Shown: positions 6,855 through 32,628 of the stretch, piece by piece | Position numbering within the stretch: the first letter of the stretch is position 1 | Layout: the number at the start of each line of letters is the position of its first letter | Origin: Eledone cirrhosa | Lineage: Eukaryota | Reading direction: 5' to 3' | DNA: 64,000 bases | NCBI GenBank assembly: GCA_964016885.1 | Contig: OZ024763.1 | Coordinates: forward strand, 18,352,001-18,416,000 | The notes under the pieces: model-generated | The model's database searches: none | What the model was told of the DNA's origin: nothing | Seen by the model: only the letters and a program-made list of their open reading frames with translations | Translations under genes and position numbers: made by a program

Positions 6855-6944
6855 TTATATTTCTTCCCAGGTAGGGACTAGATCACTTTCATTGTCAAAC
6901 TCCATTTTATGTGGAGAGCAGAGAGATGAAATATGGATATTAGC
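6855..6944 (-). CDS. MEIOSIN-like last coding exon
   Basis: ttttcgtctgcag|ANIHISSLCSPHKMEFDNESDLVPTWEEI*. Confidence 0.75.
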   Translation of the reverse strand, partial: ANIHISSLCSPHKMEFDNESDLVPTWEEI

Positions 6945-30900: not shown

Positions 30901-32628
30901 AAACAGTATAGTTAACACAAAACATTGTGAGATATGTAATAAAAGATTAACTTTCATAAAGCTGGTACAATGTGGTAGAAATATATAAAAGGCAAAGCTT
31001 GATAAATATAACGAAACTAAGTAATGTTTTTACCTAATATATTTCAACACGATATTTCTACCTGGATTTGCAGCTGGTAGATAGTATTAGCAATTGGAAA
31101 GACCAATGGAAACATTGTTTCCTCGGTCCGACTTGGCGAGCTCCACCCCACACATTAAGCAAACAAGGTCAGGGATCTTGTCGATTGACTGTTATATTTC
31201 AAGGCTAATCCCCTCTTTTCAAATGTGGGGGTGAAACAGTTCAGGAAGACCACATCAATTGTTCATTTTGTCTTGAACTGTTTCAGCTCCACATTTGAAA
31301 TATCATGTTGAAAATGGAAAAGGAAGGGAAAGGCAAGGGCTCGCTCTAGTGTCACAGAAGAATGGGGAGGGGACAGGAAGAGGATGATGGGCTCTGGGCC
31401 AAGGGTGCAGCGCAGTATTGAGGCTGAAATATACTGGGTAAAACATTACTTTGTTCTGTTTTATTTGTCATTCTTTACCCTTTGTATGTTTATCTATCAC
31501 ATTGTACCGGCTTTTTGAAAATTATCAATTTAATAAAATATTTTTCTTTACTTTTTTCTGATAGGAAATTTGCCAAGATGGATTCCAATAAGTTGACATG
31601 ATTGACTGTTTCTTGGAGTATATGAGCCTGAAAAATTCAATATAATTCATAATTTTTGCGAGTTTAGTTTCAAACAAGTTTTAAACCCATCTCAAATCCA
31701 ACCCATTCAAAACACCCCCAATTCTATGACAAACTTTTTGTTTGAAAAATTCAACATGGAAGGAAGATGCAGTAGAAGAAGACCACGGAAAACATGGGCA
31801 AAGGTGGTGAGAGTTGACCTCAGATTGCTGAAGCTCACAGAGGAAATGACAAAGGACCGTGGCGAGTGGAGAGATGTTGAAGAGAACCTGTCCCACCCTT
31901 GCAAGCAGGGAAAAGCAGGCGTAAAATGATGATGATGAATTCATAATTTTTGTGAGTTCGTTTTCAGACAGGTTTAAAACCTTTTTCAATACCAACTGAT
32001 TAAAAAATAACCCCAATTCTATGATGACAGACTTTTTGCTTTAAAGTATTCATCAAACATCACCATCATCAGCCTGTGGCTTCAATTGAAATGGATTCAA
32101 AGATAGATCTCCACAAAAGTGTGTCACTCATTGCATTGCCTAGATCCTGAACATCAATACCAGAGTCTCTGGTTATAACATCTGGATAGGAGAGTTTATG
32201 ATATCTTTTGATAGATGTTAGTTTCTAATCCATGAGATTTGTCACTCACTACACTACCTAGATCCTGGCTATGACATCTGGACAGGAGAGCTTGTGACCT
32301 CTTTTGATAGCTGTTAGTTTCCAATCCATACAGGTCTGTCACTCATCATATTGCCTAGATCCTGAACATCAATAGCAGAGTCTCTTGTTATGACATCTGG
32401 ATATGAGAGCTTGTAGAAAGTAGACTAAATCAACCCCAATGCATTACTGGTACTGTATTTCAAATAATCCAACTAAAACCTAACCTTTGAGTATTTCCTC
32501 TTGGATTTCTTCTTGTTTGAAGCATCTGTTATCATCTTCAATGTATTGTAGCCATTTGCAACACTTGCACGCCATTTTGCATCTGATTGTCTGCGCTTTA
32601 CACGTACTGAATTAGTATGTCTTGCCAT
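6855..32628 (-). CDS. bHLH + HMG-box transcription factor, MEIOSIN/BHMG1-like; 12 coding exons, 595 aa
   Basis: Manual splice: join(32628-32485,31627-31552,30598-30493,28829-28703,28012-27593,25474-25346,20381-20308,13758-13690,11916-11827,10130-9886,8485-8268,6944-6855) = 1788 nt, open frame, all GT-AG, phases match. bHLH: KRRQSDAKWRASVANGYNTLKMI...YSKAHILQETVNHVNLLE. HMG: GYFFFYKQVVEEMK...VASKVSKMWCALSVDEKKTLVTLAALEK. Family call rests on domain architecture only. Confidence 0.8.
7170..7547. repeat. (AAG)n microsatellite with AGGCAA variants
   Basis: Directly visible; accounts for the poly-R/E/K/S ORFs. Confidence 0.95.
8268..8485 (-). CDS. MEIOSIN-like exon 11
   Basis: ccttacag|QLFNKGQGNGFHIVPEMNARPSK...NQCPWK|gtaata, phase 1->0. 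Confidence 0.8.
9330..9860. repeat. ~30-bp minisatellite (GGTGGTGCCCCAGCATGGCCAACTKTCAA); inverted relative at 27009-27461
   Basis: Directly visible tandem array. Confidence 0.85.
9886..10130 (-). CDS. MEIOSIN-like exon 10 (HMG box)
   Basis: cttttccag|YFFFYKQVVEEMKHQPYDQRPEDIDVASKVSKMWCALSVDEKKTLVTLAALEK...DDMDD|gtaagt. HMG pattern Y-x-x-F ... W-x-x-L-S-x-x-E-K. Confidence 0.85.
11827..11916 (-). CDS. MEIOSIN-like exon 9
   Basis: ttttatgttcaag|FFTESKQEPSSTIPSDNYLPKNTDSLDFDG|gtaaga, phase 2->2. Confidence 0.75.
13690..13758 (-). CDS. MEIOSIN-like exon 8
   Basis: tttccttag|SVTKLNPHKSSKHGTTCRKRLD|gtgagt, phase 2->2. Confidence 0.8.
14465..17590. repeat. ~101-107 bp satellite, about 29 copies, intronic
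   Basis: Unit CATGGTCCAGTGGTTGGT..CCCTGGTCAGGTCAGG..ACCTGCT with a variable number of GGTCA pentamers. Confidence 0.95.
17896..18237 (+). mobile_element. tRNA-derived CORE-like SINE with RTE-type 3' tail (copies 30040-30380 +, 10680-10990 -)
   Basis: A box TGGCTTAGTGG, B box GAGTTCAATTC, central ccttgagcaagacac, tail CCACCCTTGCAAGCAGGGAAAAGCGGACGTAAAA(TGA)n. Confidence 0.75.
18383..18626. mobile_element. TTAA-flanked piggyBac-type MITE (copies 4217-4443, ~10235-10434, 21740-22040, 23726-25339, ~26430-26648)
   Basis: Family consensus termini TTAA|CCCTTTAGCATTTA...TAAATGCTAAAGGG|TTAA, with shared interior. Confidence 0.7.
20308..20381 (-). CDS. MEIOSIN-like exon 7
   Basis: tttttag|SPDNDPSKFLICNESMTEMEKVTS|gtagga, phase 0->2. 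Confidence 0.7.
20596..21212. repeat. 37-bp internally palindromic minisatellite, about 16 copies
   Basis: AAGTTATGAACT-gttggaaatg-AGTTCATAACTT. Confidence 0.9.
22946..23283. mobile_element. Fold-back element with hammerhead-like motif
   Basis: ~135-bp inverted arms 22946-23080/23090-23223, 9-nt loop, unique tail running into TA. Confidence 0.75.
23111..23146 (+). ncRNA. Minimal hammerhead with U3-A8 core variant (mirror copy on - strand)
   Basis: CUU-UUGAAAA-GCAG-aagaa-CUGC-GAAA-CCGG-UA|AAG. Confidence 0.55.
23726..25339. mobile_element. Expanded MITE with internal minisatellite and nested CR1 fragment
   Basis: TTAA termini; ~11 copies of a 57-70 bp unit at 23870-24520; CR1 at 24521-25187; unit resumes after the insertion. 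Confidence 0.7.
24521..25187 (-). mobile_element. CR1-clade LINE 3' fragment (others 9130-9330, 22741-22942, 57712-58195)
   Basis: ETVQRRATKRIP..YSERF..TRGHAYKI..RHFFTLRVAEAWNKLP, the CR1 ORF2 C-terminus; (ATT)n tail; duplicated 3'UTR. Confidence 0.85.
25346..25474 (-). CDS. MEIOSIN-like exon 6
   Basis: ttttctttcag|ISCESSSFTPLKSPPVFDLGLSPITTPCMKQLNNYLPCGLYMP|gtaagt, phase 0->0. Confidence 0.8.
25995..26330 (+). mobile_element. RTE-clade LINE 3' fragment (others 29340-29880, 31745-31938, 19900-20220)
   Basis: RRLRWYGHVMRMEDDRWVKKCLEMPVEGRRGRGRPRKTW; (ATG)n tail. Confidence 0.85.
26734..26978 (+). pseudogene. Inverted near-identical copy of the HMG-box exon (exon 10) inside intron 5
   Basis: ORF 26714-27013(+) translates identically to 9851-10150(-). 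Both splice sites are copied, and homology extends into the flanking MITE and minisatellite. Confidence 0.85.
27593..28012 (-). CDS. MEIOSIN-like exon 5
   Basis: tctccatatag|ETQISSTMLSEETEPQ...GNHFQLKE|gtaaga, 140 codons, phase 0->0; overlaps ORF 27560-27991. Confidence 0.85.
28703..28829 (-). CDS. MEIOSIN-like exon 4 (shortest form; acceptor tandemly repeated upstream)
   Basis: ttttacag|GSAIRKCMFLEELLNEIYELDNEDSPITGHFDCSESLSETAL|gtaata, phase 2->0. Confidence 0.75.
28806..29194. repeat. 78-bp x5 tandem repeat spanning the exon-4 acceptor
   Basis: Near-identical units; minus-strand ORF repeats PQHFKLTITPYIFLFYSGSAIRKCIT. Confidence 0.9.
29340..29880 (+). mobile_element. Decayed RTE LINE ORF2 fragment
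   Basis: FCYLGD..KGRLYDAC..MLHGSETW..GRPRKNW motifs interrupted by stops and frameshifts. Confidence 0.75.
30493..30598 (-). CDS. MEIOSIN-like exon 3
   Basis: ttttatttcag|RFVDSGLLPETNNTFSDINDVRNDFAAKQAGIFS|gtaaat, phase 1->2. Confidence 0.8.
31552..31627 (-). CDS. MEIOSIN-like exon 2 (bHLH helix 2)
   Basis: tttttcag|AHILQETVNHVNLLESILANFLSEK|gtaaag, phase 0->1. Confidence 0.85.
32485..32628 (-). CDS. MEIOSIN-like coding exon 1 (basic region, helix 1, loop)
   Basis: MARHTNSVRVKRRQSDAKWRASVANGYNTLKMITDASNKKKSKRKYSK|gttagg. Acceptor at 32665 and an in-frame TGA upstream of the ATG. Confidence 0.85.

Follow-up and report, generated by a model that had tools for sequence, protein, structure and literature searches.

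The regulators that control entry into meiosis are considered poorly conserved. In mouse, STRA8 and MEIOSIN bind each other via their basic helix-loop-helix (bHLH) domains (PMC13637641, section 8), the targets of STRA8 bear CNCCTCAG (PMC6392498), and STRA8 is described as binding RB via an LxCxE motif, which times the pre-meiotic S phase (PMC10600341). Stra8 has been called vertebrate-specific (PMC4574967), and one report in print describes an amphioxus Stra8, identified by reciprocal BLAST (PMC3769385). Among the papers readable without subscription we found no protostome STRA8 orthologue named as such; a study on Platynereis with one 'stra8' (PMC13012086) may bear on this point. We analyzed a 64-kb stretch of DNA from the octopod Eledone cirrhosa (contig OZ024763.1; hereafter the window, meaning this whole stretch), which carries on its minus strand, from position 32628 to 6855, a gene for a protein with a bHLH and a high-mobility group (HMG)-like domain. 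The first-pass annotation had seen in it a MEIOSIN orthologue or an independent fusion, with relevance for how old the switch into meiosis is. The bHLH and HMG-type gene is real and this relevance holds, but judged by its sequence the gene is most likely an orthologue of STRA8, and thus probably a STRA8-type member from a lineage in which none was expected.

Relationship of the octopus gene to STRA8

The window consists of AT-rich animal DNA laden with repeats, with close protein relatives in Octopus. Exon models built from splice-site scanning and alignment to Octopus sinensis LOC118768054 yield a gene of 12 exons, in which all 11 introns are of the GT-AG type and the spliced exons form a single uninterrupted reading frame of 595 codons followed by a stop, with the same length and ends as first annotated. 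The protein is identical to LOC118768054 in 440 of 607 columns (72%), and every exon is matched (64–94% identity), those encoding the bHLH being the most similar (94 and 92%). Since the frame is open and all exons are conserved, the locus was not considered a pseudogene, and we regard the gene as real and intact, its junctions resting on splice signals and protein homology. A 362-residue O. vulgaris model lacking the bHLH is taken as a partial gene prediction.

In the O. sinensis protein the predicted N-terminal bHLH was confirmed by Pfam HLH (22.5 bits, cut-off 20.7), while the HMG box was recovered in part, scoring above the cut-off with HMG_box_2 (29.1 bits vs. 22.4) but below it with HMG_box (PF00505; 13.5 bits vs. 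25.4). The latter domain is found in 97% of the members of a chordate 'meiosis initiator' cluster. An AlphaFold model of the same protein, based on a six-row alignment, had a mean predicted local distance difference test score (pLDDT) of 38.7 with helices where expected. Foldseek gave no match to this model at E 0.001, a sequence search of the PDB gave nothing beyond weak HMGB and bHLH rows, and an Atlas search with the HMG part alone gave no cluster at the mark of 0.9.

With the full-length O. sinensis protein, seven proteins were found among 3750 candidates, the named ones all being molluscan. A profile made from six mollusc relatives and searched over 1.84 billion proteins (E 0.001) gave 110 matches; 51 were scanned with Pfam and the source was looked up for 30 (some of them nameless), the other 80, mostly fragments shorter than 190 amino acids, lying outside this look-up. 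Five of these 30 were named vertebrate STRA8 (Latimeria, Coregonus, Brienomyrus, Heterodontus and Amia), three of which matched the profile best through their HMG-like part, and none was named MEIOSIN or BHMG1, the older name of MEIOSIN. Further looked-up matches came from gastropods and bivalves as well as from Tachypleus, Ixodes, Halotydeus, Asterias, Lytechinus, Branchiostoma, Lingula, Owenia, Capitella, Helobdella, Tubulanus and Watersipora. The family spans molluscs, annelids, a brachiopod, a nemertean, chelicerates, echinoderms and amphioxus. The cut-off of the Pfam family bHLH_STRA8 (PF23175) was passed by 8 of the 51 scanned proteins, namely the five STRA8 and those of amphioxus, horseshoe crab and a limpet. 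A bHLH clade (support 96/88) contains the rows of Lottia, Biomphalaria, oyster, Capitella and Helobdella, and the family is LHLH2/LmorHLH of Bao, Xu and Shimeld 2017 (PMC5381572). Genome searches found no second copy of the family in Eledone; the PF23175 profile search of the genome gave two weak non-hits and missed exon 1 of the gene itself, and therefore says nothing on absence. Three nameless metagenome bHLH proteins with a (D)RKWR-like basic region (P0096, P0104 and P0112) were weak profile matches.

A profile built only from the five vertebrate STRA8 and searched over the proteins gathered in this analysis gave 46.7 bits to the window protein (bHLH 23.3 and HMG-like domain 21.9, in this order) and 6–8 bits to octopus BHMG1-cluster proteins; BLASTP of the window protein against two BHMG1-cluster proteins gave no alignment. 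Conversely, an HMG-like profile of the invertebrate members scored STRA8 at 32–42 bits, generic HMG boxes at 20–28 and the BHMG1 class at 12–13. In a tree of the HMG domains (37 rows and 67 columns; nine family members that did not match the motif strictly were excluded), 12 invertebrate members and the five STRA8 form a single clade (100/99), BHMG1 is placed with SOX-type boxes (97/94), and a grouping of the family with BHMG1 is rejected by the approximately unbiased (AU) test (p 0.037). Family and STRA8 have in common an HMG-like start of the form F[DE]G[YF]xxxY, which replaces the usual basic-proline start. The bHLH tree (55 rows and 63 columns, with Lytechinus left out) likewise joins 20 invertebrate members and the five STRA8 (92/94), with BHMG1 outside.

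The Asp of SDAKWR, already noted at the position of the E-box-binding Glu, was found in this column in 20 of 20 invertebrate members, where all five STRA8 have Gln and the BHMG1 class has Glu, as do 24 of 28 other octopus bHLH domains used as outgroups. The next residue is Ala in 19 of the 20 family members and in every STRA8, and Arg or Lys in all 28 outgroups. Since the BHMG1 class retains the Glu, a basic region without it points to STRA8. An LxCxE motif occurs in 28 of 30 long invertebrate members, in 26 of them between the two domains (1000 shuffles: mean 2.4, maximum 8 of 30 members), in three of the five STRA8 hits and in none of five BHMG1-cluster proteins. Its position deviates in amphioxus, where it is C-terminal as in vertebrates, and in the horseshoe crab, where it directly follows the bHLH (perhaps by chance).

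Profile scores, HMG tree, basic region and LxCxE motif make STRA8 the most likely assignment and do not favor MEIOSIN. The pairing of bHLH and HMG domains, earlier thought to define MEIOSIN, is not diagnostic because STRA8 too combines a bHLH with an HMG-like domain (PMC13637641, section 8), and an independent fusion was rejected since both domains match STRA8 in order.

A putative partner gene and the possible role at meiotic entry

A second bHLH and HMG gene of Eledone, on the plus strand of contig C14 (∼42686850–42700500, loci L093–L094), was traced from a weak HMG_box hit; the HLH family search of the genome did not list it, and two motif patterns searched in the genome for such a gene matched nothing. 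Inspected by eye, its bHLH looks like that of the published LtcHLH rows. Its O. sinensis relative scores 32 bits with Pfam HLH and 54.4 bits with HMG_box, had no bHLH_STRA8 hit in the Pfam scan, and falls into a cluster in which one O. vulgaris protein carries the name 'basic helix-loop-helix and HMG box domain-containing 1-1'. The C14 gene is likely the octopus counterpart of MEIOSIN, as judged from these sequence features. In the literature, oyster CgBHMG1 is cited as 'involved in meiosis' (PMC8945556), and Meiosin has been named in anemones (10.1101/2025.09.17.676462). Two long open frames with internal repeats (42696043 and 42700291) in the C14 gene do not occur as such in O. sinensis. Among discarded candidates for a second gene, a third motif pattern gave only repeats and a chance hit on C19, and an HMG exon on C12 had no bHLH nearby. 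Near-identical divergent HMG-box frames, presumably Maelstrom-like, were seen on C4 (184539968), C3 (211287147) and C15 (34764032), each followed by a longer open frame.

Complex prediction with the two O. sinensis proteins (window type and C14 type) gave a score of 0.67, compared to 0.11 for the best of three controls; of 78 solved pairs 51 reach the mark used, as do 2 of 108 mismatched ones. The runs agreed in at least 77% of their contacts, with a partner pLDDT of at least 71, and the predicted contacts cover both HLH helices and the helices following them. Since unrelated proteins served as controls and bHLH dimers are well known from solved structures, this result may express likeness more than specificity.

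An octopus STRA8 orthologue acting at meiotic entry together with a MEIOSIN-like partner and an RB-family protein is, in our view, probable. The window protein would be active in germ cells as they enter meiosis and would dimerise, bHLH to bHLH, with the C14 protein, as predicted. By analogy with mouse, the dimer, with an Asp contributed by the window protein and a Glu by the C14 protein, could activate meiotic genes at a non-E-box motif, and the LxCxE of the window protein could draw RB off E2F and so time the pre-meiotic S phase. An RB_B exon is present in the Eledone genome (contig C12, 32729418); 64 kb from it lies a SOX/HBP1-like HMG exon (C12 32665349, L018). For a conserved meiotic role as a whole, which rests on the analogy with mouse, we see the balance tipping slightly in favor.

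Several observations count against this interpretation. The bHLH_STRA8 profile gives the O. sinensis protein only 16.6 bits (cut-off 25), and the Atlas search ranks mollusc BHMG1-type (0.83) and chordate 'meiosis initiator' clusters (0.78) slightly above STRA8 (0.77), all of them below the mark of 0.9. The phylogeny proposed as a check in the first-pass annotation joined the family to STRA8 in the HMG tree, but for the bHLH the AU test does not reject a grouping with BHMG1 (p 0.165); both trees are short (63–67 columns) with long branches, and they include vertebrate MEIOSIN in neither case, the BHMG1 class being represented by two octopus rows. The label of the C14 gene rests on a submitter's name for a cluster member, on Pfam patterns and on a general resemblance. 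The window protein has 595 residues, compared to 266–347 in four of the five STRA8 hits, and the oyster member has a model without an HMG-like match. Because the LxCxE lies mid-protein here and C-terminally in vertebrates and amphioxus, the motif may have arisen twice.

The rival reading that survives best, though we consider it unlikely, accepts descent from STRA8 and sees in the mollusc protein an RB-linked regulator of the cell cycle or germline, without a fixed partner and not a trigger of meiosis. It would fit the oyster, where the member XP_011426088 (P0018 cluster) is also found in eggs and early embryos, including cleavage stages, at 1–3 fragments per kilobase per million (FPKM), and where the LtcHLH gene of the presumed partner family is broadly expressed (haemocytes 27 FPKM, male gonad 5.1), and it would fit the report that Stra8 is not detectable in zebrafish and hagfish (PMC13637641, section 5). 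However, XP_011426088 is strongly enriched in the male gonad (9.06 FPKM, ∼8-fold above the next organ, the digestive gland, with 1.17; female gonad 0.71; at most 0.1 in six other organs), the bHLH exons are 92–94% identical across two octopods with a basic region nearly invariant between phyla, and the partner gene has been retained with its bHLH.

Alternatively, the family might be an ancient sister paralogue of STRA8, left by a duplication before the bilaterian split with reciprocal retention in vertebrates and invertebrates, or its placement might in part be a long-branch artefact. In the bHLH tree every one of the 20 invertebrate rows, among them amphioxus and starfish, falls into a group apart from vertebrate STRA8 (95/83), and the position of the LxCxE is unlike that in vertebrates. 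We nevertheless regard this as improbable, given that the HMG tree nests STRA8 within the family near amphioxus (85/85), that amphioxus has the C-terminal LxCxE of vertebrates and a Stra8 recognized by reciprocal BLAST (PMC3769385), and that the Eledone genome searches found a single copy of the family. Weakest of all, and very improbable, is that the window gene is MEIOSIN/BHMG1 itself or one of two co-orthologues. The shared order of domains, a comparable length, the chordate 'meiosis initiator protein' cluster and the permissive bHLH AU test, in trees without vertebrate MEIOSIN, would allow it, but the looked-up matches name STRA8 and never MEIOSIN, the HMG AU test rejects it, the BHMG1-named cluster contains a different octopus gene, whose HMG box is canonical, and the LxCxE of the window protein has no equivalent in that class.

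Returning to STRA8 as the preferred assignment, we give even chances to a deeper scenario, in which a complete STRA8–MEIOSIN–RB module for meiotic entry was present in the last common bilaterian ancestor. Two orphan bHLH families regarded as restricted to lophotrochozoans, LHLH2 and LtcHLH, would then be STRA8 and MEIOSIN, would to this day form a dimer that initiates meiosis in annelids and molluscs, and zebrafish and hagfish would lack STRA8 through loss. A STRA8 orthologue with bHLH, HMG-like domain and LxCxE alongside a bHLH-bearing MEIOSIN-class gene in an octopus would by itself make this two-protein switch much older than vertebrates, would favor loss in hagfish, and would point to two genes in oysters and annelids, where control of germ cells bears on the breeding of sterile stock.

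Exons, exon copies and neighboring features

All exons lie on the minus strand. Exon 1 (32485..32628; residues 1–48) holds the ATG, the basic region and helix 1 of the bHLH, is identical to O. sinensis in 45 of 48 residues, matches the genome only once and is followed by a phase-0 intron after Lys48. Helix 2, recognized by the O. sinensis alignment and Pfam, lies on exon 2 (31552..31627; residues 49–73), and a family-conserved post-bHLH helix, supported by alignment and predicted structure, on exon 3 (30493..30598; residues 74–108). Exon 4 (28703..28829; residues 109–151) was placed by splice sites and the O. sinensis alignment. Exon 5 (27593..28012; residues 152–291) encodes a linker of low conservation which is predicted to be disordered, exon 6 (25346..25474; residues 292–334) a Ser/Thr-Pro-rich part (TPLK, SPP, SPITTP), exon 7 (20308..20381; residues 335–358) the LxCxE motif (residues 344–348, at 20354–20340), and exon 8 (13690..13758; residues 359–381) a basic CRKRL motif kept in molluscs. 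The DFDG start of the HMG-like domain terminates exon 9 (11827..11916; residues 382–411), where a phase-2 intron interrupts it at DFDG|Y, and exon 10 (9886..10130; residues 412–493) carries the STRA8-type HMG-like domain, followed by exon 11 (8268..8485; residues 494–566) and exon 12 (6855..6944; residues 567–595) with the TAA stop. Two features of the first description need qualification: the linker is present but only moderately rich in Ser (13%) and acidic residues (Asp and Glu 14%), and the HMG-type domain (residues ∼405–472), although there, is not strictly C-terminal, as ∼120 further residues follow it.

Exon 10 has two genome matches, both within the window. An inverted duplicate of 9391–10434 lies on the plus strand inside intron 5 (26423..27467) and contains a full copy of the exon (26734–26978) with both splice sites kept and one synonymous difference. 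Around the exon 297 of 300 bases are identical, while the outer flanks show 86–88% identity with indels; such a peak of identity could stem from gene conversion or from a recent duplication that ends in repeats. One contig of run X1 covers 26646–27003 without gaps, across an indel which tells the two copies apart; among three low-depth DNA runs of one sample, no piece spans intron 5. It is possible that pairing of the pre-mRNA over exon 10 forms a long RNA duplex subject to editing or exon skipping. As computed, skipping would stop the frame at codon 417, so that the HMG-like domain is lost and bHLH and LxCxE are kept. Five 78-bp tandem copies of the exon 4 acceptor with the first bases of the exon were found at 28806..29195; the last one alone continues into the exon, the other four being decoys. 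The acceptor of exon 7 and the beginning of that exon recur in an incomplete, frameshifted copy (21306..21398, minus strand), which lies ∼1 kb upstream of the real exon.

Intron 7 contains a satellite of 107 bp in 29 copies (14520–17595), intron 6 a 279-bp self-complementary stretch (22946–23223; 96%), and other introns arrays with units of 37, 132 and 29 bp. Further long palindromes occur at 36201–36532 and 37126–37462. A decayed mariner-type transposase fragment (Transposase_1; 44283–45065, minus strand) was the only result of a synteny scan of 85 of at least 124 flanking frames; the last exon of a nucleoside diphosphate kinase (Pfam NDK, 1e-47) lies at 53843–54346 on the plus strand.

Comparison with STRA8, MEIOSIN and LHLH2

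Like STRA8, the window protein combines an N-terminal bHLH without the E-box Glu, a helix following it, a degenerate HMG-like domain that starts with F[DE]GY, and an LxCxE motif. It differs from STRA8 by the long linker separating the bHLH and the HMG-like domain, by a basic region with Asp for Gln and Trp for His, and by an LxCxE placed before the HMG-like domain instead of C-terminally. No poly-Glu tract corresponding to the glutamate-rich region of STRA8 exists in the 595 residues. As this tract is reported to be poorly conserved (PMC6392498) and a long one is also absent from the fish STRA8 rows, it does not define STRA8.

With MEIOSIN/BHMG1 the window protein has in common a bHLH, a long disordered linker, an HMG-type domain and a similar length, and the C14 and window genes both have a phase-0 intron after the Lys preceding helix 2. 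In contrast, the C14-type octopus protein has a canonical SOX-like HMG box, the Glu in its basic region, ∼120 residues ahead of the bHLH, and no LxCxE.

The published bHLH rows of LHLH2/LmorHLH (PMC5381572) show the basic region of the window family, and the LHLH2 accessions of Lottia, Capitella and Helobdella, as well as the one from oyster, were found among our profile matches or their clusters. In that study, whose main text contains neither 'stra8' nor 'HMG', the group is listed as lophotrochozoan only, on the basis of the bHLH alone (PMC5381572). The window-gene family differs in its reach, which also takes in chelicerates, echinoderms, amphioxus and vertebrate STRA8.

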